The notes under the pieces were generated by a model. It made no database searches. It was not told the origin of the DNA and saw only the letters and a list, made by a program, of their open reading frames with translations. Of a DNA stretch of 64,000 bases, positions 20,748 through 56,161 are shown one piece after another (position 1 is the stretch's first letter; each line of letters starts with the position of its first letter). The position numbers and the translations under genes are program-made. Source of the DNA: Candidatus Multivoradales bacterium (GTDB lineage: Bacteria > Acidobacteriota > Thermoanaerobaculia > Multivoradales > JAHEKO01); NCBI GenBank assembly GCA_965248055.1, contig CBDFIJ010000004.1, positions 2,944,001-3,008,000 of the forward strand. The letters run 5' to 3'.

Positions 20748-22154
20748 CTAGTTTCCCCGCCCTGGGTGCCATTGCGCAACCCAAATCGGCCATTTTCCGC
20801 GGATCCGATGGCGGTGATCGATGGTGATGCCCGGAATCCACACCGGTTGGTCGTTGATGGTGACCAGCGGGATACGGTCACGATCTTGATAGGCGACTTT
20901 GGCGTCGATCAAGATGTCCTTGATTTTCCTTTGATAGTCGGCGCCGAAAGGTTGCAGGCGGTCGCCAGGGATGCGGCTGCGGACTTCGACCCGGGCGTCG
21001 GCGGGGGCTTCAAAAGCGGCGCGCGTGGCTTCGCCTTCGAGCATCCATGGTTCCAGGCTGGCCGCAACGATCTCCACCTGTCCCCCGTCAGGAAGAGTTA
21101 CCACTCCCGGCAAGGAGCACGAAAGACAAAATGGCATGCTGGGTGACGGAACGTCGGTGATCAAGAGCCGGTCGTCTTGTTCGACCAACCTTCGATCCTT
21201 GGATAGGCGAACATCGAGGGTGGTTTGCCGCTGGAGTTGTTTGCTCAGCTCGTCGATCGATGTTTGACCGGACAAAGGAGAAGTTTCGCCGGGCGTAGAC
21301 TCGTCTGGATCCAGGGTCGCGAGCACGAAGGGCCAAAGGACTCGTGGCAGAGTCCGAAGCCGGTTAGCGCTGATGGTGGGTTTTCCCGTTGGGTCTTGGC
21401 GAGCGTCGATCGTGTCACGCAAAGCTTCTGCCGTGGACTTCCGAAGTTGGGCCGTAGCTTGGGCAAGCGACGATAAGGTAGCCGGAAGCTCGGGGTTGTG
21501 AGCTGTCAGGTGGGGAATCAACCGGTGGCGGACCCAGTTGCGGGTGAGCGACAAGTCTGTGTTGGTGGGATCTTCGATCGGCGACCAGGTAACGTCGGCG
21601 TTTTGCTGGCGCACCAACTTGGCCGGAAGCTGGAGCCACGGACGGCCGATGGGCCCGAACCAGGGTTGAATTCCGGCCAACCCGCGGATGCCGGAGCCGA
21701 ACAAGATTCGCAAGAGGACCGTTTCCACTTGGTCGTCGAGGTGGTGGCCGGTGAGCACCGCACTGGCTGCCACCTGGCTGCGGACCCGTTCCAAGAACGA
21801 GTAGCGCTGTTCGCGGGCCCAAGCTTCGACTCCGGCTGGCCGGTGGCTCGGGACCGTGACCCGGTCGCTGATCCACTCGGCGCCGATCTGCTGGGCTAGT
21901 CCTCGAGCTTGTTGTGCTCGATCGGATGACCCGGGATCGATACCGTGGTCGAGATGTGCGGCGTAAACCGCGATGGTTGGCGAGTAGAGCTGAACCGCAG
22001 TGGTCAGCAGTGCACAGGAGTCTGGACCTCCAGAGAATGCGACCACCAGTGGTGAGCTATGCCGCGACTGGTGTTTGTCGCGCAGAAACTTGGTGAGGTG
22101 AACCTCCGCGGCGGAGAAAAGGGAGGTGGTGGCGGTGACGGGACTCGAACCCAT
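20748..22154 (-). CDS. tilS: tRNA(Ile)-lysidine synthetase (start uncertain)
   Basis: VAFSGGPDS, AREQRY, TGHHLDDQVET, EDPTN, RNWVRH and TilS_C (PGDRLQP). Confidence 0.92.
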   Translation of the reverse strand: MGSSPVTATTSLFSAAEVHLTKFLRDKHQSRHSSPLVVAFSGGPDSCALLTTAVQLYSPTIAVYAAHLDHGIDPGSSDRAQQARGLAQQIGAEWISDRVTVPSHRPAGVEAWAREQRYSFLERVRSQVAASAVLTGHHLDDQVETVLLRILFGSGIRGLAGIQPWFGPIGRPWLQLPAKLVRQQNADVTWSPIEDPTNTDLSLTRNWVRHRLIPHLTAHNPELPATLSSLAQATAQLRKSTAEALRDTIDARQDPTGKPTISANRLRTLPRVLWPFVLATLDPDESTPGETSPLSGQTSIDELSKQLQRQTTLDVRLSKDRRLVEQDDRLLITDVPSPSMPFCLSCSLPGVVTLPDGGQVEIVAASLEPWMLEGEATRAAFEAPADARVEVRSRIPGDRLQPFGADYQRKIKDILIDAKVAYQDRDRIPLVTINDQPVWIPGITIDHRHRIRGKWPIWVAQWHPGRGN

Positions 22155-22203
22155 GACCTAGCGGTTATGAGCCGCTCGCTCTAACCAGCTGAGCTACACC
22201 GCC
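22127..22203 (-). tRNA. tRNA with CAT anticodon (elongator Met most likely; Ile2 not excluded)
   Basis: Cloverleaf: GGCGGTG/CACCGCC acceptor, AGCGG-CTCATAA-CCGCT anticodon arm, TTCGAGT loop, encoded CCA. Confidence 0.95.
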
Positions 22204-23182: not shown

Positions 23183-23257
23183 GGGAGGTTAGCTCAGTGG
23201 GAGAGCATCTGCCTTACACGCAGAGGGTCGGGGGTTCAAGCCCCCCACCTCCCACCA
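23183..23257 (+). tRNA. tRNA-Val(TAC)
   Basis: GGGAGGT/ACCTCCC acceptor, TCTGC-CTTACAC-GCAGA anticodon arm, CCA. Confidence 0.96.
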
Positions 23258-23284: not shown

Positions 23285-23363
23285 GGGGGCGTAGTTCAGT
23301 TTTGGTTAGAACGCCGGCCTGTCAAGCCGGAGGTCGCGGGTTCAAGTCCCGTCGCTCCCGCCA
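23285..23363 (+). tRNA. tRNA-Asp(GTC)
   Basis: CCGGC-CTGTCAA-GCCGG anticodon arm, G73 discriminator, CCA. Confidence 0.96.
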
Positions 23364-26310: not shown

Positions 26311-26661
26311 GTGTTCGGAAGTTTAGGAATCTGGGAAATCGTCTTTATCGTCATTCTTGGGCTGCTGATTTTTGGCCCCAAGAAGTTGCCGGAGGTGAGT
26401 CGCACTATCGGGCGGACACTGGGTGAATTGCGCCGTTCAGCCGAGGAGTTCAAGCACACCGTTGAGCGAGAGGCCTCAGACGTGCAGAATTCGGTGGATA
26501 CAGTGGTTCGTGGATCGGCCTCTTCTGAAGCTGCAGATTCTGAAGATACAGCTTCTCCGGCTGGTACTTCTGAAGACGGCGTTTCTCAAGACAGTATTTC
26601 TCAAAACAGCAGCACGGAAGGTGCACCGTCCACGGATCTCTCAGCGGGAGATCGTTCTTGA
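26311..26661 (+). CDS. Twin-arginine translocase TatA/TatB subunit
   Basis: GGAGG SD before GTG 26311; FGSLGIWEI...IFGPKKLPE; adjacent to tatC. Confidence 0.88.
   Translation: MFGSLGIWEIVFIVILGLLIFGPKKLPEVSRTIGRTLGELRRSAEEFKHTVEREASDVQNSVDTVVRGSASSEAADSEDTASPAGTSEDGVSQDSISQNSSTEGAPSTDLSAGDRS
26524..26613 (+). repeat. Six degenerate 15-bp tandem repeats in the TatA/B tail
   Basis: TCTGAAGCTGCAGAT / TCTGAAGATACAGCT / TCTCCGGCTGGTACT / TCTGAAGACGGCGTT / TCTCAAGACAGTATT / TCTCAAAACAGCAGC. Confidence 0.7.
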
Positions 26662-27428
26662 ACCAAACCTCAGAATCTCTCCAACGGATGAGTCTGCTGG
26701 ACCATCTGCAGGAGCTTCGCACCCGTATTTTTCAGACTCTGGTGGTGGTGGTGGTGGCGTTTGGGGTCTGTTGGGTGTGGGTGCAACCGATGTTCGAGTT
26801 TCTCGCCCGACCGATCTACAAAGTGCTGCCGGAGGGCACCAAGCTGGCTTTTTTGGGAGTCACCGAGCCTCTGATCTTGTTCGTCAAAGTCGCCGGTTTG
26901 GGCGCCATCTTTCTCACCTCGCCGGTGATCCTCTATCAACTGTGGAGGTTTGTCGCCCCAGGTCTCTATAGCAGAGAACGACGTTTGGTGCTGCCCTTTA
27001 TCCTTGCCGGGACCTTCTTTTTTCTCTTGGGCGGTGTCTTCGCCTATACCGTCGCCTTTCCCTTCGCGGTTGAGTTCTTGATCGGTATGGGAGAACAGTT
27101 TGAGGCGGTGGTGACGGTGGATCGCTACTTTTCGTTCCTATTGACGGTGATTCTGGGCATGTCGATGATGTTCGAGTTGCCGATTTTCATCTTTTGCCTG
27201 GCGGTTGTCGGCATTGTTGAGGTCAAGACTTTGGTCAAACACTTCCGGTGGGCGGTGCTGCTGATCTTCATCGTTGCGGCGGTGATCACCCCGACTCCCG
27301 ACGTTTTCAATCTGATGATCTTTGCCCTGCCAACGATTGGTCTCTACGTGTTGGGGGTGGCTGCCGCTGCGTTGGTGACCTACCGCCGGCGAAGACGGGA
27401 GGCCAAGGCAGAATCCGCTTTGTCCTAA
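26658..27428 (+). CDS. tatC: Twin-arginine translocase TatC
   Basis: HLQELRTR, YQLWRFVAPGLY..E, FELP and AAVITPTPD. Confidence 0.95.
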   Translation: MNQTSESLQRMSLLDHLQELRTRIFQTLVVVVVAFGVCWVWVQPMFEFLARPIYKVLPEGTKLAFLGVTEPLILFVKVAGLGAIFLTSPVILYQLWRFVAPGLYSRERRLVLPFILAGTFFFLLGGVFAYTVAFPFAVEFLIGMGEQFEAVVTVDRYFSFLLTVILGMSMMFELPIFIFCLAVVGIVEVKTLVKHFRWAVLLIFIVAAVITPTPDVFNLMIFALPTIGLYVLGVAAAALVTYRRRRREAKAESALS

Positions 27429-38149: not shown

Positions 38150-38226
<77 letters not shown>

Positions 38227-48783: not shown

Positions 48784-49128
48784 TTACCCTCCGCGCTCAA
48801 GGGTCCTGGATTCCCAGCGCTCGGCCTTCAAGCCATGAACCAGTTTGGCGACCACCGCCTCACTATCAAATGGAGCGCAGTGGAATAGGTCGGCGGCAAA
48901 CGCCCCCCGCTCGGGCCAAGTGTGGATCGCCAAGTGGGACTCGGCCAGCGTCGCGACCACGGTGACCCCTTGGGGTGAGAAATGATGCACGCTGAGTTCT
49001 AGAAGATGCCCGCCACAGGCCTCAATCGCAGCCAAGACGGTAGCCTCGACTTGAGCAACATCGTCGAGCACCGAAAACGGCGAACAATCGCCCTCGACCA
49101 ACAGATGAACGCCTAAGTGATCCTTCAT
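48784..49128 (-). CDS. speD: Pyruvoyl-dependent S-adenosylmethionine decarboxylase proenzyme (class 1B)
   Basis: LGVHLL, HHFSPQGVT, LAESHLAIHTWPE and DLFHC; ATGA overlap with the upstream gene. Confidence 0.88.
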   Translation of the reverse strand: MKDHLGVHLLVEGDCSPFSVLDDVAQVEATVLAAIEACGGHLLELSVHHFSPQGVTVVATLAESHLAIHTWPERGAFAADLFHCAPFDSEAVVAKLVHGLKAERWESRTLERGG

Positions 49129-51263
49129 GGTTGCGATTTCGGGCGGGCGATGGCGGCGATCAGATATCCGTGCGATCGCAGCCATGGCAACCGGTCGTAG
49201 GCGGCAGAGAAAGGTATCAGTAGCCAGCGGACAAGGCTAGGCAAAGCTGGGATCTTGACCTTTTCGGTGTGCAATGCGAGATCCATCATTCGTAACCAAC
49301 CAGGTTGCAACAGGATACCGTTTCGCGCTTCAACTTGCAGCCCAGCGGCTTGGCAGATTCGTCCTAACTCGCTGTGGCTGTACGACTTCTCATCTCCATA
49401 GTGGTAAAGACCGAAAGCCTGAAGAGCGCCGACCAGGACCGGGCGCAAGAACGGGTCGCGGGCATTCGGCACTCCAAGAACCACCTTGCCGTTGGAGTCG
49501 GTGACCCGGCCGATCTCTCGCACCGCCTTTTGGGTTTCGGGGAAGTGTTCGACAGTGCCCATCGAATAGACGCCATCAAAGCAGCGATCTCGATAGGGAA
49601 TAGCTCGGACATCGGCGACCAGCAAGTTTGCCTTGACCCCGAGTCGGCGAAATTCATTCCTGGCCATGATCACGGTGGGCAAGGAGATGTCAATTCCATG
49701 TACGGTGGCTCCCTGCCCTGCGAGCCACTGCAAGATACGGGTGTTGCGCGCTTCGTCCCATAAGTCGGTTTTCAGGATCGTCAGTCCCTTGGGGCTAGGG
49801 AAAAACTCGCCTAGCAGCCTCTGCTCGTCACGGCGGTAGATCTGGGTGCTGGCTGCTTGACCAAGATCCGGGAACCATTCGCCGACTTGAATCCATTGGT
49901 CGAGATAGTCGGTGGTTGATTGCCTACGACGTAGACCCCAGGCAAGCAGCGTTGGCAATGCGATGCCGATGGTGCGCAATACCAGCGGATGCAGGACGAA
50001 TCCATCGGTAGCCAGATTGCCCAACAGAATCCGTAGACCGAGACCGGTTGCTACTAGGCCGACGCTAGCAACCGCGGTGGTGATCAAGCTCCGCCCACCG
50101 ACAACCAGTGTCAGGGCGACCAACAATCCAACCATGTAAGCTGGCAGAAAACTCAGTACTCCCTGCGGGTCGCCGATCGCCAGGTCGCTAGAGGTTCCAA
50201 TTCTGCCCCGATCCCATATTTGAATCAGGGTGCCGAGGCTAGCGCTGATCGTGATCGCCCAACCGGGACCGAGGTAAGTCGCAGCACCTCGTTGGCGGCG
50301 CACACGATTAATGGCGAACACCACCAGGACAGCCAGGATAATCTGGTAAAAGGCGTGCAGTGCGGTGTAGTGCTGCGTCCCCATCAGCCCAGTCGGCAGG
50401 GCCAAAACCAGAAGCCGGCTGGCGCCCAGGGCGGAAAACAACAGAAACGCGGCGAGGGTAGCGAAAATCTTGTTTAGGTTAGATTTTACCAGCGCCCAGA
50501 CCAGCCCCAGGTAGGCCGGGATCAAGGGGGTCAGCACGCACTCCTGGGTGACCAACCAGCGGCCGTGCGGGGTGGTCAGCAAGTTGCCGTTGATCCGTGC
50601 CTCGACACCCAACCAATTCATCACTTGAGCAGAGGCCGCAGTGATCCAAAACGCCCACTGGAGAATCAGGTCACTGGAGTAGAGGGTTGGCGCCAGGGCG
50701 AAGTAGACGATCGTAGCGCTGACTACCCAGGCCATCGGACCGGCGACTTCGCGCGCGATCGGCTTGCTGCTGATCGACGCCGCGGGTTTGCGAATCCAAT
50801 ATAGAACGAAGGTTGTTGCCGCCAAAACCAGCAACAAGGGAAACAATCGCAGGTGGAGAAGGTCGAAAAGGTCGCGATTGCTGGCCACCCAGGACAAAGA
50901 TCCGATGCGCGCGGTATTCAGCCCAATCAAGAGCGCCAAAGCGAGGCCGGCGCCGGTCCAGCGTCGTTTCCAAGCCAAAGGAAAAGACAGTAGCGCTCCC
51001 AACGTCACCGCCATGACGTCGGCTCCGGTGCAGCTCAGGTCGACCACCAACGCGTCGCGCGGAGCCCCAGTCAGAGAGCAGGCAGCACCGTGTTGCAACC
51101 GAGCAAATGGAATCAATAGATGGTCCTGCACCCAGGGAATACGTACCAAGGCAAAGAGGCCGACAATCCAGGCCAGTGAGCGTGCCAGGAATAGCACCAA
51201 TCCAGGTCGCTGTGGGTGGCGAACTGGTTGCGTTGGGGTAGTGATCTCTGTCGTGCTAGCCAT
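49125..51263 (-). CDS. Tandem exosortase-like domains fused to a class I SAM-dependent methyltransferase-like domain
   Basis: Domain 1: VDLSCTG..LNTARI..LLH. Domain 2: VTQECVL..ASRL..ALH. C-terminal ILKTDLWDE, GIDIS, ADVRAIPY and FDGVYSMGTVEH. Confidence 0.8.
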   Translation of the reverse strand: MASTTEITTPTQPVRHPQRPGLVLFLARSLAWIVGLFALVRIPWVQDHLLIPFARLQHGAACSLTGAPRDALVVDLSCTGADVMAVTLGALLSFPLAWKRRWTGAGLALALLIGLNTARIGSLSWVASNRDLFDLLHLRLFPLLLVLAATTFVLYWIRKPAASISSKPIAREVAGPMAWVVSATIVYFALAPTLYSSDLILQWAFWITAASAQVMNWLGVEARINGNLLTTPHGRWLVTQECVLTPLIPAYLGLVWALVKSNLNKIFATLAAFLLFSALGASRLLVLALPTGLMGTQHYTALHAFYQIILAVLVVFAINRVRRQRGAATYLGPGWAITISASLGTLIQIWDRGRIGTSSDLAIGDPQGVLSFLPAYMVGLLVALTLVVGGRSLITTAVASVGLVATGLGLRILLGNLATDGFVLHPLVLRTIGIALPTLLAWGLRRRQSTTDYLDQWIQVGEWFPDLGQAASTQIYRRDEQRLLGEFFPSPKGLTILKTDLWDEARNTRILQWLAGQGATVHGIDISLPTVIMARNEFRRLGVKANLLVADVRAIPYRDRCFDGVYSMGTVEHFPETQKAVREIGRVTDSNGKVVLGVPNARDPFLRPVLVGALQAFGLYHYGDEKSYSHSELGRICQAAGLQVEARNGILLQPGWLRMMDLALHTEKVKIPALPSLVRWLLIPFSAAYDRLPWLRSHGYLIAAIARPKSQP

Positions 51264-51318
51264 CTGATGCGTAGGCCTCGGCTGAGAAGGTTGCATCGTC
51301 GTCGTTTAGACTGCGTCG

Positions 51319-53268
51319 GTGCTCTCAGTTGTCGTTTCTCGAAGTCTACTGCGCCAATCCCTGATGGTTGCGATCGGTTCTGTGATCTTGACCTTGGCGA
51401 TGGCCTGGCCGGTGGTGCAGCAGCCCAACGATTTGTTGTTTGGCACAGAGATCGTTGGACGGCACGCTGACGCCTATACGGTCATTCGAGGATTCGCCGA
51501 ACGTCAGCCGCTGGGCGGGTCGACCCAGCCGGTGGTCGACTGGCTTGGGGTCGGGCTGGCGTCACTCATCGGGGCTGTTGCCGCCTACAACCTACTGATC
51601 TTGATCTCGTTTCCGCTGGCTGCACTGGCGGTATTCTGGCTCGCTCGTTACCTGAAACTGGGGAAGTGGCCCGCGGCGTGGGCGGCGTTCTTGTTTGCTT
51701 TTTCCCCTCTGCACATCGCCCACGTTGCCTACCATCCGCATGTGGCCCAGGTTCAGTGGATTCCATTGGTGATTTTGGCGGTGATCGCTGCAGTCGACCG
51801 GTGGTCCCTACTGCGAGCAACCATGATGCTGGCAGTTGTGGCTTTGGCCTGCCTGTCCAATTTTTATACCGGGTTGATTCTCTTGGTGGTCCTGCCGGTG
51901 GTTGTGTGGGTTCTCAAACGATATCCAGTTGGCAGTGGAGAAGGATGGCGAAAAACCGTGTGGACCCTATGGCTGATCGCCTTGGTGGGCTCGCTTTACG
52001 TCGGGTTTTTCCACGGCACGGTGTTTCGTGATCCGGCTGCATTGGCTTTTCCAACGGCAGACGGCCAAAAGTACGCTGCCCAGCCCTGGTCCTACCTAGT
52101 GCCACCGGTGGACCATGCAGTGTTAGGCAAGATCGGCCAGACGTTTTGGCAGCGGACCACCGAGCCCGAAACCTTGGACGATGCGTTGCTGGAGCAACAG
52201 GTCTACTTGGGTTGGGTGGCGCTCACTCTGGCGGTTCTGGGGGCGTGGATCTGGCGTAAGCAACCTGGAGCATCAGCGATGCGCGCGGCGCCAGTTTTGA
52301 TCGCTATGGGTGTGATCGCGTTCTTGTTCTCGTTGGCGCCGGTGTGGTCGGTTTGGGTGCTGCAACTGCCGGGTCCGTCGTGGTTGCTGCGCGCCATGGC
52401 GCCGATGTTTCGTGCCTATGCGCGGTTTGGGTTCGTGGTTCAACTGGCGATATTTCTTCTGGCGGGACTCACCTGGACCCGATGGCGACTCCAAGGGGGG
52501 CGATGGGCCAAAGTCCCGGCGATCGTCCTTGTCTGCATCAGCGTCTTGGAGTACCTGCCGTTGCCGCCGTTGCGCTCCCATCCCTTGCGGCCCCATGCAG
52601 GCTACCGATTGTTGGCCGAAGCAGAGCCCGGATGGTCGGTCTTGGATTGCATTCTCCGGCCGCAGCTGCGCAGCTCGGTGGCACCGGTAGTCGATGGGAC
52701 TATGTATGTTGCCGACGGCGACACTTTGGATTGTGGTGAACCTGGACTGGCATCGAAGCTGGCTAGCATGGGTGTTGGATACGTAGTGGAGAACCTCGAA
52801 CGTCGCTTGGAGGATCGACCGGAGTTTCGCCTGCTCAATGAGGCGGATGGGGTTGGGATTTATGGCGTAGAGGCGGAACCGGTGCCCATCCACATTCGAC
52901 GTTGGGCCGGGTTTTCTTGGCGGGAGGGCGCGGGAGAATCTTCCATCCGCTGGGCTGGAGGCCAAGCCTCGTGGTGGCTTTCCAACCCGCGGTGGATCCC
53001 CGGGCCGGTGGAGATCGAGGTTGAGTTGGTCGCTTTTCCTGACCCGAGGGAGCTTACCGTTAAGCTCAATGGCGAAGTAATCGAGACCTTTCTCATCTCC
53101 AACCAGCGTTCCTGGTTCGTCTTGCGATTTACACCACATAGGGCGCGCAACCATCTAAATTTCATTGCCAGCGGAGATGCGATCGTGGCGGATCAGATCT
53201 TGGGCAACAGCGATCGCCGCCGGTTGGCGTTTGGGGTAGGAGGGGTTCGCTACCGTTCCGCCGACTAG
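51319..53268 (+). CDS. GT-C fold multi-TM glycosyltransferase (YfhO/PMT-like)
   Basis: Asp in the first loop (RHADAY), AYNLLIL, AFSPLH, FRAYARFG and LEYLP; about 11-13 TM helices plus a periplasmic tail. Confidence 0.75.
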   Translation: MLSVVVSRSLLRQSLMVAIGSVILTLAMAWPVVQQPNDLLFGTEIVGRHADAYTVIRGFAERQPLGGSTQPVVDWLGVGLASLIGAVAAYNLLILISFPLAALAVFWLARYLKLGKWPAAWAAFLFAFSPLHIAHVAYHPHVAQVQWIPLVILAVIAAVDRWSLLRATMMLAVVALACLSNFYTGLILLVVLPVVVWVLKRYPVGSGEGWRKTVWTLWLIALVGSLYVGFFHGTVFRDPAALAFPTADGQKYAAQPWSYLVPPVDHAVLGKIGQTFWQRTTEPETLDDALLEQQVYLGWVALTLAVLGAWIWRKQPGASAMRAAPVLIAMGVIAFLFSLAPVWSVWVLQLPGPSWLLRAMAPMFRAYARFGFVVQLAIFLLAGLTWTRWRLQGGRWAKVPAIVLVCISVLEYLPLPPLRSHPLRPHAGYRLLAEAEPGWSVLDCILRPQLRSSVAPVVDGTMYVADGDTLDCGEPGLASKLASMGVGYVVENLERRLEDRPEFRLLNEADGVGIYGVEAEPVPIHIRRWAGFSWREGAGESSIRWAGGQASWWLSNPRWIPGPVEIEVELVAFPDPRELTVKLNGEVIETFLISNQRSWFVLRFTPHRARNHLNFIASGDAIVADQILGNSDRRRLAFGVGGVRYRSAD

Positions 53269-53417
53269 TGCAGAGAGCCAGCCGCTGCAGATGGCGGTAA
53301 GAGAATCGCCAGACACTCGGAGCCCTAGCAAAGAACCCCGTCCACTCCCGCAGACGGGATTGGATAACCGAACCGGTCGACCTGACGAAGCCAGAGTCGC
53401 CCCGGAGAGGGACAGGG

Positions 53418-54986
53418 TTAGTTGTCGAACAATTGCTGCTTGCGTAGCTGTAGCGCTGTGACGGTGAGCAAGGCCAGAACCAACAGGATCATCGCCCATT
53501 CCGGTACCGTCGGGGCAACCGGGGTTGGCTGGCAGGTGGCTTCGCAGCCATCGCCGTTGATCAGGTTGCCGTCGTCGCAAACTTCACCGAGACCAGTTTG
53601 CAAGACCCCGTCACCGCAGACTTCGGGGTCACAAACACTGTTGCAGCCATCGCCGTTGTCCAGGTTGCCATCGTCGCAGGTATCTCCAGCATCTAGGGTG
53701 CCATTGCCGCATGCCTCACTCTGACAGTCAGCGTTGCAACCATCCCCTTGGGTCTGGTTACCGTCGTCGCACTGTTCATCAAGGCCAGCCTGCGTGGTGC
53801 CATCGCCGCAGGATTCCGGAACACACATATCGGAGCATCCGTCTTCGGAGACCATGTTGCCGTCATCGCATTGCTCGCCGACATCAACCGTTCCATTGCC
53901 GCACACTTCGTTCATACAGGCAGCGTTGCAGCCATCCCCGTTGGTGCTGTTTCCGTCGTCGCACTCCTCGGGGTCTTGAACTACATTGTCGCCACAAGTT
54001 TCGCTAAGGCAAAGTGCGGTACAGCCGTCGCCATCAACGTTGTTGCCGTCATCGCAAGTTTCACCGAGTCCGAGTTGGACGATGTTGTCGCCGCAGAATT
54101 CGTCAATACACTCGAAGGTGCAACCGTCACCGGAGGTGGTGTTGCCGTCATCGCATTCCTCAGCGCCGCCGTCGTTGGTGGTGCCGTCGCCGCAGAATTC
54201 GTCTACGCACATGTCGGTGCAACCGTCACCGGAGGTGGTGTTGCCGTCATCGCATTCTTCGCCTGGGTCGATGTTGCCGTCGCCGCACTGGGGTTCATCC
54301 ATGCAGAATTCGTCGCAGCCGTCGCCGGATGTGTTATTACCGTCGTCGCATTGTTCGCTAGCGTCTAGGTTGCCGTCGCCGCAGACATCAACTTCCACAG
54401 TCATAGCAGTTAGGGCGTTGCATTTCGAGCCGGTTCCAGAGGTAACCGTTGGCGCTGTGCATGCCGGAATTGTTGCTCCGTTTTGCGCCCAGGAACTGAC
54501 GATACCGAGGCTCTGACCATCCCAGTCGCAAGAAACAGTGAACGTTTGTGTTGTGGTTACCGTGGCACTACCGGTACCGTCAACGTCATCACAAGAATCG
54601 CCATCGATTTGGTCGCCATCAGGATTGATCAAGTTGCCGAAGCACTGATCTGCGGCGCTCAAATTTGTGACGTCCGAGGTCGAACTGAAGGGCATCCACA
54701 GACCGGCGTCAAATTTTTGCCCGTTGCCTGCTGGGTCAAGATTCACCGTTACCTCCAAATCGAAGGTATCAGTCGGGTTTGCACAGGTGTCTGAAGTTGT
54801 AACTGAAATGACCGCCATACTGAGGTCGTTGGCTGAGCACGAGTTGAACTCGTTTGGACACGATTGTTGCTGCGCGTAGGCAGCCGCTGGCAGTAGCCAA
54901 CTCGCGGCTACGAAACTGGCTACAAACGCCAATGTTGGTATTGGAGCCAATGCGCGACGCTTAACCGACAAACTGAAGTGGATCAC
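53418..54986 (-). CDS. Surface protein with nine Myxococcus Cys-rich (DUF4215) repeats and an IPTL-CTERM-like sorting tail
   Basis: GGAGG SD before GTG 54986; signal peptide ...AAAYA|Q; 9x CG(D/N)x..E/DxCDDGN...DGC...C; C-terminal [12 protein letters not shown]. Confidence 0.88.
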
Positions 54987-55086
54987 TGGTGTGCCCTCCG
55001 GCCTTTGCCATTTTTGGGACCGTCTCTGAAACAAGAACTCCTCGGTCTCAAATGTCACCGAGGCGCAGAGAAAACTTATTGAGTGA

Positions 55087-55123: not shown

Positions 55124-56161
55124 CTAGATCAGTACCTTTGAGACAGTCGGCGGGAGCACGACCCCTGGGTCGAGCTTTAGAAGGTACCTTGCCGGGGGTT
55201 TTCTTTTCAAGCTCTTGTGCGGCCTGTAGGTGTTGTAGAGGTCCTGGAATCTCTGGATGTAAGGTCTCAAAGCCGAGACAGTATCGGGTAGCTCATACAT
55301 TTCATAAAACTCTCCTCTCCAGGTTTCCTGCATTCGTTCGACGGTGCCGTTGAGCTTCGGACTCTTTGGCGGCAGCACATAGAGGGTGATGCCTCTATCT
55401 CGGCAGGCTTTCTCAAATTCATCCATAAATTCACTACCACCGTCCACTTGGATCGAGGTGATGTCAAACGGACACTCGGCAATGACTTTGTCTAGAAAGC
55501 GTGCTGCACAGCGAGAAGTGGCACGTTGATAGATCTCTCCCACTGTCCACCGGCTGACCGGACAGGAGGCTGAAAAGTGTTTGAGCCACTTGCCTGGAGC
55601 AGGGACCAGATGCAGCGTGTCGATCTGCAGTCGCTCGCCAGGGCGCGTTGGTCGGGGACACCATTTCGGCAGTCGCTGAGCGTGGAGCCGGCGCATACGC
55701 CGGGAGTTTTTGTACTTCTGGCGCCGGTAGCGTACCCGGTGGATTACCCCTCGATCCATCAATTTGCGCAAGATACGCCCGACAGTGGCTTCTGATACCT
55801 CAAAGCCCTCGCCCTGGATCAGCGGCGCTAGGGTTTCCTTGCCCCAGGCAGGAAAGTCTCGACGGAGACTTTCGACTCTCTGTACCAATTCAGGTGACCA
55901 GTCAGCCTTACGCACCCGCTTGGGTCGGCTTGATATCGGTTCTAGATGTCGGGGGCCACGCTCAAGGCGTTTGCGCCAGCGGTAAAGGGTAGCTCGACTC
56001 TTGCCCAAGATCTGAGCTGCTTCTTCACCCGAGATCCCCTTGTCGCGTAGTTGCTCGAAGCTCGCAACCAAGCGCAGCCGATCACGAGCCTGAGAGCTTA
56101 AGACAACGATGTCTTCACGGTAGTACTTGTAGATACTGCGATCGAGTGCGACGATTTGCAT
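55124..56161 (-). CDS. IS481-family DDE transposase (intact)
   Basis: HTH (SRATLYRW), LQIDT, VDGGSEF, NGTVER and YNTYRPH; the stop codon lies within the IR. Confidence 0.92.
   Translation of the reverse strand: MQIVALDRSIYKYYREDIVVLSSQARDRLRLVASFEQLRDKGISGEEAAQILGKSRATLYRWRKRLERGPRHLEPISSRPKRVRKADWSPELVQRVESLRRDFPAWGKETLAPLIQGEGFEVSEATVGRILRKLMDRGVIHRVRYRRQKYKNSRRMRRLHAQRLPKWCPRPTRPGERLQIDTLHLVPAPGKWLKHFSASCPVSRWTVGEIYQRATSRCAARFLDKVIAECPFDITSIQVDGGSEFMDEFEKACRDRGITLYVLPPKSPKLNGTVERMQETWRGEFYEMYELPDTVSALRPYIQRFQDLYNTYRPHKSLKRKPPARYLLKLDPGVVLPPTVSKVLI

Follow-up and report, generated by a model that had tools for sequence, protein, structure and literature searches.

The locus described here lies between positions 48784 and 55058 of a 64,000-nucleotide stretch of contig CBDFIJ010000004.1 of Candidatus Multivoradales bacterium (hereafter the window, to which all coordinates refer). 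It contains four adjacent genes, encoding a homolog of SpeD, the class 1b pyruvoyl S-adenosylmethionine (SAM) decarboxylase; a membrane protein that joins a pair of exosortase-like units to a third membrane module and to a methyltransferase-like (MT-like) domain of class I; a second membrane protein with the predicted fold of GT-C glycosyltransferases; and an exported cysteine-rich protein with a C-terminal tail resembling the IPTL-CTERM sorting signal. An earlier note on this DNA had placed these four genes, and had pointed to the two Cys/Arg/His exosortase-like units and the SAM-type domain of the approximately 712-amino acid (aa) protein, to the overlap of its stop codon with the start of the SAM decarboxylase gene, and to the Cys-repeat protein with its IPTL-CTERM-like end; all four open reading frames (ORFs) are intact at the positions given there, and these observations were confirmed wherever they could be checked. 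Comparison with related genomes, described below, suggests, with about an even chance of being right in our estimate, that an XrtH-related exosortase forms the basis of a dedicated system for sorting and modifying proteins at this locus.

The SpeD gene (48784..49128, minus strand) encodes 114 aa. Upstream of it and on the same strand is the fusion gene (49125..51296), which encodes 723 aa, or 712 aa when translation begins at 51263; the shorter product is the database form, P0001, and its residue numbering is followed here. The TGA stop codon of the fusion gene and the ATG of speD overlap as ATGA at 49128. From the N-terminus, the fusion protein consists of exosortase unit 1 (residues 20-165, 50769..51206, minus strand; C78, N116, R119 and H137), exosortase-like unit 2 (residues 170-325, 50289..50756, minus strand; C242, R283 and H303), a third membrane module recognized by its conservation, helices and topology (residues 330-448, 49920..50276, minus strand) and the MT-like domain, predicted to be cytoplasmic (residues 452-712, 49128..49910, minus strand). 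The gene for the GT-C-fold protein (51319..53268, plus strand; 649 aa, with a C-terminal, presumably periplasmic beta-sandwich) is transcribed divergently from the fusion gene. The candidate substrate (53418..55058, minus strand; 546 aa) has an N-terminal segment resembling a signal peptide, nine Cys-rich acidic repeats and a C-terminal sorting signal at 53421..53516 (minus strand); a start at 54986, chosen in the earlier note, is as possible as the one at 55058.

Recurrence of the cassette in Acidobacteriota

Whether SpeD and the GT-C protein accompany homologs of the fusion in other genomes, a question raised by the earlier note, could be answered in the affirmative. A pattern search of a genome collection with a single representative for each species gave 308 matches, 296 of which, nearly all in Acidobacteriota, encode a relative of the fusion. 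From these, 80 loci were kept, almost all from Vicinamibacteria, Thermoanaerobaculia or unclassified Acidobacteriota, and their ORFs were searched with profiles of each module; many of these loci are shortened by contig ends. The membrane part of the fusion is found beside the MT-like domain in 67 of the 80 loci, SpeD in 55 and the GT-C protein in 41. When only the 47 loci flanked by 5 kb or more on each side are considered, the respective counts are 44, 40 and 28, and all three modules accompany the MT-like domain in 25. The arrangements include runs of four adjoining genes with overlapping ends (SpeD, then the membrane part, GT-C and MT), as well as fusions of the membrane part to MT (27 loci) and of SpeD to the MT-bearing protein (8 loci). 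In a word-indexed protein search, 7,999 candidates were scored and at least 149 proved to be homologs of the fusion; among the matches listed, 38 of 120 homologs carry the SpeD domain (PF02675) in the same polypeptide, C-terminally in the aligned examples and N-terminally in one, P0077. Such cassettes, found in several orders, were also recovered from a separate sample of the phylum. Besides the cargo genes discussed below, no further neighbor family, including GT2 glycosyltransferases, flippases and CDP-alcohol transferases, was found in more than 9 of the 80 loci.

Not all loci follow this plan. In a variant found on Vicinamibacterales chromosomes (L058, L065, L072, L076, L080, L082, L084, L087 and L091), SpeD overlaps MT, the membrane gene is located 1-3 kb away (0.3-2.5 kb downstream in the listed cases) and no GT-C gene is present within 10 kb, and in the genome G357 the membrane gene is present twice (L121 and L122), well away from the SpeD-MT pair (L113). 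Recurrence in other genomes shows that the arrangement is more than chance, and given the fused genes and overlapping frames there can be little doubt that its parts function together.

The presence of the modules within the taxonomic family of the window points in the same direction. This family is represented by 25 genomes, 11 with the membrane protein and 14 without it; these kin are not independent, so the counts are descriptive, and they include one unpublished genome (G002). SpeD is found in 10 of the 11 genomes with the membrane protein (9 of 10 when G002 is excluded), the exception being a genome that is 62% complete, and in one of the 14 genomes without it, which has a canonical spermidine synthase. 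The IPTL-CTERM model TIGR04174 gives matches above the cut-off in 8 of the 11 genomes (7 of 10 without G002) and in none of the 14. In other families of the same order, small XrtH-like genes (approximately 190-240 aa) are found instead, with 7-28 IPTL-CTERM matches in most genomes searched, and SpeD, MT and GT-C are absent within approximately 10 kb of all five canonical XrtH-like loci analyzed, which makes the SpeD link particular to the fusion family. In an evenly drawn sample of the phylum (401 genomes, 227 genera), 14 genomes from 12 genera encode the membrane protein and 22 genomes the MT-like domain; among 1.84 billion cluster representatives, the profile of the membrane part retrieves 275 at E ≤ 1e-30. 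By these counts, the family cannot be called rare.

Exosortase units, GT-C protein and candidate substrates

Unit 1 of the fusion matches TIGR04178, the exosortase/archaeosortase signature, with 40 bits in the protein scan (cut-off 23, aa 85-168) and 43.2 bits in the genome search, where the fusion gene is the single match in the whole genome. The best specific model is XrtH (TIGR04177), with 45.9 bits; as this is well below the cut-off of 86, and as the protein has two units and extra modules, it is to be regarded as a relative of XrtH and not as a member. PF09721 was not reported by hmmscan at E ≤ 0.1, yet it is among the precomputed domains of P0001 and of most homologs. Unit 2 shows a weak match to ArtE (E 0.0019, aa 218-297). 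Profile-profile comparison of the two units with hhalign (probability 96%, E 4.3e-9) aligns their Cys and Arg columns and shows unit 2 to be a diverged duplicate of unit 1; canonical small XrtH-like proteins match the profiles of both units in five of five cases, that of unit 2 at 1e-6 to 1e-9. Among 32 homologs, C78 of unit 1 is conserved in at least 90% and R119 and H137 are invariant, as are C242, R283 and H303 of unit 2, and the Cys/Arg/His residues of both units are kept in 23 split forms as well. With the TIGR04178 signature passed and these residues retained twice, the exosortase-like nature that the earlier note ascribed to the membrane domain is borne out.

The third membrane module shows no similarity to unit 1 or unit 2 in profile-profile comparison. 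Its residues D365, Q367 and R430 are invariant, and G368 is conserved in at least 90%, in the same 32 homologs. The AlphaFold2 model of the fusion (pLDDT 85.9) and the distribution of Arg and Lys in the loops suggest a topology with the N-terminus and the MT-like domain in the cytoplasm, so that the Cys, Arg and His residues of the two units, like the polar residues of the third module, would lie near the outer face of the membrane. A sequence-profile search of the PDB with the fusion found no exosortase or archaeosortase chain, and all Foldseek matches of the whole fusion fall on the MT-like domain, with none for the membrane part. NCBIfam release 20.0 contains no model specific to the fusion family, which obtains generic or sub-threshold matches, and the source names of the homologs are likewise generic (“exosortase/archaeosortase family protein”, “S-adenosylmethionine decarboxylase”, “methyltransferase domain-containing protein”).

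The 649-aa protein has no sequence match in Pfam, NCBIfam or the PDB, and the Atlas lead for it is DUF6311/YfhO-like. An AlphaFold2 model built with 25 homologs from related loci (pLDDT 88.1, pTM 0.86) retrieves GT-C enzymes at all of ranks 1-34 of a Foldseek search of the PDB, namely AftD (E 1.3e-9), STT3/PglB/AglB, EmbC, ArnT, DPY19, AftA and ALG12, with Pmt4 at rank 37; the query TM-scores are mostly 0.38-0.44 and lower for the larger Emb proteins. The C-terminal beta-sandwich matches carbohydrate-binding modules. Transmembrane helices 1 and 2 of the 649-aa protein are connected by a long outer loop, the first of the chain, in which H49, D51, Q70, P71 and D74 are invariant; the catalytic acids of GT-C enzymes are located in this loop. 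The protein would share with ArnT, PglB/AglB/STT3, AftD, Emb and YfhO the fold, the long loop with invariant His and Asp, and a periplasmic C-terminal domain, and differ from them in lacking a family match at the sequence level and in TM-scores of only approximately 0.4. The model and the Foldseek matches support, at the level of fold, the GT-C label given in the earlier note, and in relatives the protein is a core member of the cassette.

The repeats of the candidate substrate are recognized by TIGR02232 (myxo_disulf_rpt, 251.5 bits) and DUF4215 (147.7 bits). The protein ends in APTVPEWA, followed by a hydrophobic helix and RKQQLFDN; the IPTL-CTERM consensus is IPTLxxWG. TIGR04174 gives 18.5 bits on the protein, below the cut-off of 20.5, and 23.1 bits in a six-frame search of the genome, and PF18203 gives no match to this protein at E ≤ 0.1. 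It is the sole protein in the genome with an IPTL-CTERM-like tail, and its gene adjoins the fusion locus. To survey the related loci, the pattern “[VA]P[TSAV][LM][PSG], hydrophobic helix, basic residue” was sought at the extreme C-terminus of ORFs; as it demands Leu or Met at the fourth position of the motif, APTVPEW of the window is itself not matched. The pattern occurs in 38 of 4,997 ORFs, of which one is clearly a false match; these ORFs are spread over 37 of the 80 loci. In 13,522 frames of the genome of the window, by comparison, one match was obtained, a false one. The frequency of tail-bearing genes beside the cassette is thus approximately 100 times the background of the genome, and most of these genes are directly adjacent. 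In ten such neighbors assigned with Pfam, six Ice_binding-like proteins (PF11999), three with DUF11 or DUF7507 repeats and one without a family were found; PF18203 is above the cut-off in three of the ten (30.7, 32.4 and 25.1 bits) and just short of it in a fourth (20.7 against 20.8). The presence of IPTL-CTERM-type substrates beside the cassette thus extends to the relatives.

An alternative is that the exosortase-like units process no protein and that the cassette makes a modified lipid or polysaccharide, the genes with IPTL-type tails being bystanders. Indeed, 43 of the 80 loci have no tail-bearing neighbor, and TIGR04174 finds nothing in three genomes of the family that have the membrane protein. 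Against this, Cys, Arg and His are kept in both units, tail-bearing genes are strongly enriched and often adjacent, TIGR04174 matches follow the membrane protein within the family, and many of the loci are truncated by contig ends. We therefore consider this alternative very unlikely.

The cargo itself varies, as no homolog of the DUF4215 substrate of the window is present in any of the 80 related loci. The commonest cargo in relatives is an Ice_binding-like protein with an IPTL-CTERM tail, sometimes with additional DUF7933 or He_PIG domains, which forms a cluster of 24 loci (L050, L054, L059, L063, L081, L036 and others). The absence of the DUF4215 family from these loci, together with an IS481-family transposase gene that adjoins the substrate gene (55124..56161, minus strand; NF033577 186.6 bits, below the cut-off of 224), could be taken to mean that the four genes of the window are unrelated neighbors, brought together by chance or by the transposable element. 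This explanation is extremely improbable, since SpeD, the membrane part, GT-C and MT are found together in dozens of species with overlapping frames and fusions; it is contradicted for the four enzyme modules, and only the choice of substrate may be recent. In G001, a genome of the same genus, the cassette is conserved and no tail-bearing gene is present within approximately 9 kb (L102), which, along with the transposase gene beside the substrate in the window, suggests that the cargo gene may have moved or been swapped recently.

A second, weak IPTL-like match in the window (27324-27398, 16 bits) corresponds to the C-terminus of a TatC-like protein (26658-27428, plus strand), where a hydrophobic helix is followed by RRRRR, and was dropped. 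Four tRNA genes are the sole Rfam matches at the gathering score in the window (22130-22203 and 38153-38225 on the minus strand, 23183-23254 and 23285-23360 on the plus strand).

SpeD, the methyltransferase-like domain and their proposed chemistry

The SpeD protein scores 100.5 bits with PF02675 (cut-off 25) and 101.1 bits with TIGR03330, the equivalog model of SAM decarboxylase (AdoMetDC; cut-off 75.65), and is the one PF02675 match in the genome. E63, S64 and H65 of the ESH processing site, as well as H69 and C84, are invariant in 21 SpeD proteins of the cassettes. The Pro of the HTWPE motif is kept in at least 90% of them, including that of the window, and is absent in two (L043 and L048). 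According to the available text of PMC10407285, one Pro is fully conserved in true AdoMetDCs but not in their arginine decarboxylase offshoots, and the Pro of HTWPE is probably this residue. No spermidine synthase was found in the 97.7%-complete genome in searches with PF01564, NF037959 and TIGR00417, and the PF01564 search was likewise empty in the sister genome G001. A true AdoMetDC would accordingly have no known consumer of its product in this organism except the SAM-fold domain to which it is coupled. Searches of the genome for PF02784 (ornithine/arginine/diaminopimelate decarboxylases), PF01276 and TIGR03099 gave no match at E ≤ 0.001, PF02784 being detected in 13 of 14 control genomes. 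Given that these three families are missing, the routes to lysine (via LysA) and to diamines in the host organism look unusual.

The MT-like domain is the most conserved part of the fusion. It matches Methyltransf_11 (PF08241) with 60.5 bits (cut-off 21.2, aa 520-606), and Methyltransf_25, _31 and _23 are also above their Pfam cut-offs. The Foldseek matches of the modeled domain are class I methyltransferases only (SpnF, MitM, AtmM, RebM and TleD; E approximately 1e-10, probability 1.00). Motif I, normally GxGxG, is replaced by K-T-D-L-W-D-E-A-(R/K)-N in all 32 homologs (K-T-D-L-W-D-E-A-R-N in the window), with K498, D500-A505 and N507 invariant, and the altered motif is present in 93 of 100 MT ORFs. 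The Pfam and PDB methyltransferase profiles align to the domain from motif II onward only. Among the PDB profile matches is MccD (E 2.9e-4), one of the enzymes of the methyltransferase fold that move a propylamine-type part of SAM and that are a precedent for the chemistry proposed below. In one genome (G348; L111, 9575-10912, minus strand), a diverged MT-like domain and SpeD form a 445-aa fusion with no exosortase or GT-C in the 15 kb fetched, which suggests that MT and SpeD are a functional unit in their own right. A predicted complex of the MT-like domain with SpeD, modeled without controls, reached a best score of 0.11 against a mark of 0.32.

Sequence and comparison establish the exosortase membership of unit 1, the duplication of the unit, the class I fold with an altered loop, the GT-C fold, the genetic coupling of the modules and the IPTL-type cargo. 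On this basis, the reading that we give roughly even chances is that an acceptor in the membrane receives an aminopropyl-type group from SpeD and the MT-like module and is then used by the exosortase units and the GT-C protein. Cytoplasmic SpeD would convert SAM to decarboxylated SAM (dcSAM), and the MT-like domain would move its aminopropyl group onto a membrane-held acceptor, most likely a lipid or a lipid-linked carrier; the acidic D-L-W-D-E loop of this domain would stand where a glycine-rich loop normally holds the methionine end of SAM. The same product might be reached in another order, if the MT-like domain first took the amino-carboxypropyl group from SAM and the transferred group was afterwards decarboxylated by the SpeD homolog. 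Having reached the outer leaflet, the amine-bearing molecule would serve the outward-facing exosortase units, which would cut the C-terminal signal via a thioester that the amine resolves. The GT-C protein, with its predicted active-site loop facing outward, would install or move a lipid-linked unit, or else glycosylate the substrate. In the genome of the window, a single substrate would be served in this way, the neighboring Cys-repeat protein. The earlier note had interpreted the locus as one that cleaves, anchors and decorates its own surface protein by a step wired to SAM or dcSAM; this interpretation appears supported as far as comparison goes, and its chemistry is of the inferred kind.

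Several observations weigh against the proposed transfer of an aminopropyl group, and some of them favor other explanations of SpeD or of the MT-like domain. The SpeD homolog could be a neofunctionalized arginine or ornithine decarboxylase that makes agmatine or putrescine, the diamine being used by the system or as a plain polyamine, with the MT-like domain acting as a methyltransferase or a binding module. The presence of a SpeD homolog without a spermidine synthase is, in PMC10407285, the very flag by which such enzymes were discovered, and the arginine decarboxylases among them are described there as little diverged from, and hard to tell by sequence from, true AdoMetDC. A genome without PF02784, PF01276 and TIGR03099 matches may, moreover, need an enzyme of the arginine/ornithine type, and two of the cassette SpeD proteins lack the Pro of HTWPE. 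However, the SpeD of the window keeps this Pro and passes the AdoMetDC equivalog cut-off, and SpeD tracks the membrane protein within the family. Fusions at both ends with an exosortase-MT protein are not what one would expect of an enzyme of general polyamine metabolism, and the explanation leaves the invariant SAM-fold partner without a reason for its coupling to a decarboxylase. We consider it unlikely.

The MT-like domain, in turn, might be an ordinary SAM methyltransferase, acting for instance on a lipid-linked sugar for the GT-C protein or on a lipid head group, while SpeD serves a separate purpose with dcSAM or polyamines. Four Pfam methyltransferase families pass their cut-offs, and among solved structures the closest are those of ordinary methyltransferases acting on small molecules and sugars, including enzymes of natural-product pathways (RebM, AtmM and MitM); the best NCBIfam methyltransferase model, although far below its cut-off, is MftM, the mycofactocin oligosaccharide methyltransferase. 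The first 50 fold matches of the domain include no spermidine synthase, and the aminopropyltransferase model PF01564 does not match it. A GT-C partner would also suit glycan chemistry, and MT-like paralogs without SpeD exist: stand-alone forms with Asn in the loop (L094, L095, L096, L107, L108 and L109), 42-45% identical to the MT-like domain of the window (the figure is absent for L096), have no SpeD, exosortase or GT-C nearby. On the other side, the glycine-rich SAM loop is replaced in 32 of 32 homologs, with PDB profiles aligning from motif II only, and the repeated fusions and overlaps with SpeD, in a genome with no other dcSAM user, would be left unexplained. The loop itself varies with the presence of SpeD: the form LWDE is found in 91 of 99 distinct MT ORFs, 66 of which have SpeD within the fetched stretch, and LWNE in five of 99, which together with a TGLWNE paralog in G007 have SpeD in none of six cases, although the Asn paralogs are few and related and the Asp forms are enriched by construction, the 80 loci having been fetched with a pattern containing DLWDEA. 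SpeD-less paralogs thus differ at the loop, with Asn for Asp, in six of seven cases, the genome G405 having an Asp-form loop without SpeD nearby. An ordinary methyltransferase is, on balance, a rather improbable explanation.

Further difficulties for the aminopropyl proposal concern the layout of the system. The MT-like domain and the exosortase sites would be on opposite sides of the membrane, which makes a flipping step necessary, and no gene for such a step was found; no added family exceeds 9 of the 80 loci. The GT-C gene is missing within approximately 10 kb in 13 of 38 well-flanked loci with the membrane part and SpeD, SpeD is on another contig in several draft genomes, and the G001 locus mentioned above has its cassette without a tail-bearing neighbor. 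Cleavage, anchoring and decoration by the cassette are predictions drawn from sequence and comparison. A search for sequencing runs listed four DNA-type runs of one sample and none of RNA.

Relation to known sorting systems

Among the described exosortase systems, XrtH with its IPTL-CTERM substrates is the closest, as XrtH is the best specific model for unit 1 and the cognate tails are of the IPTL-CTERM class. The fusion differs from XrtH-like proteins of approximately 190-240 aa by its two units, third module and MT-like domain (approximately 450 + 260 aa), by SpeD and GT-C partners that the five canonical XrtH loci lack, and by the one or two substrates per genome in the family of the window, as compared with many. 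A full-text literature search, with the founding 2012 exosortase/archaeosortase paper outside its scope, found no description of an exosortase tied to SpeD, to polyamines or to a methyltransferase fusion, in agreement with the earlier note, whose author knew of no such pathway. In the literature searched, IPTL-CTERM appears only as an annotation of a Methylomirabilis S-layer protein, in the available text of PMC8671808. Within that literature, the tandem, domain-fused sortase and its accessory set of SpeD, MT-like domain and GT-C are not described for other exosortase systems; in other respects, this is an exosortase system.

A precedent for coupling a sortase of this superfamily to a decarboxylase exists in archaea. 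According to the available text of PMC7157517, Haloferax ArtA requires PssA and PssD, the artA, pssA and pssD genes are syntenic in Methanosarcina, and the decarboxylase supplies an amine-headed lipid; the mechanism proposed there for ArtA involves a thioester resolved by the lipid amine. As in the cassette, a Cys sortase is thus tied to a pyruvoyl decarboxylase, but that of the ArtA system is a phosphatidylserine decarboxylase homolog acting on archaetidylserine, whereas the cassette has a SpeD family enzyme with a SAM-fold domain and no CDP-alcohol transferase. The PEP-CTERM/XrtA system likewise has its exosortase in a locus with envelope-modifying enzymes and has a decarboxylase family tied to it in NCBIfam, TIGR03099 (dCO2ase_PEP1). 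It differs from the cassette in the exosortase subfamily and signal, in the pyridoxal phosphate-dependent type of its decarboxylase, and in having neither a SAM-fold fusion nor GT-C. N-acyl amino acid synthases linked to PEP-CTERM and exosortases are cited in the available text of PMC11631085.

With the SpeD/SpeE pair of polyamine synthesis, the cassette shares the genetic coupling of a SpeD-type decarboxylase to a presumed consumer of its product, a SAM-type domain of the Rossmann fold. The loop by which class I enzymes hold the methionine end of SAM has additional acidic residues in the MT-like domain, as has the GGGDGG loop of spermidine synthases. The partner in the cassette, however, is outside the spermidine synthase family (no PF01564 match) and is tethered to a membrane sorting enzyme, and its acceptor is unlikely to be a free diamine. 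It is gene linkage that suggests an aminopropyltransferase-like working of the MT-like domain.

A more specific version of the pathway, which must be called doubtful, would make the cassette a diderm counterpart of the sortase/lipid II route: on the cytoplasmic face, SpeD and the MT-like module would alkylate a lipid phosphate or lipid-linked carrier with the aminopropyl group of dcSAM and so provide it with a primary amine, the product would be flipped across the membrane, the tandem exosortase would ligate the cleaved C-terminus of the IPTL-CTERM protein to this amine, and the GT-C protein would transfer the protein-loaded, lipid-linked unit to its final envelope acceptor. What bacterial exosortases attach their substrates to has, to our knowledge, been unknown since the PEP-CTERM system was described. 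If this route is true, it would be the first case in which dcSAM, outside polyamine synthesis, serves to anchor proteins, and a bacterial exosortase would for the first time have a chemically identified nucleophile. In the more general form of the proposal, an aminopropyl or other SpeD-derived amine as the anchoring handle is a testable chemical lead, in a compact system with one exosortase, one SpeD and one substrate in the genome. It would also account for “orphan” speD genes without spermidine synthase in Acidobacteriota, which might otherwise be read as arginine or ornithine decarboxylases.

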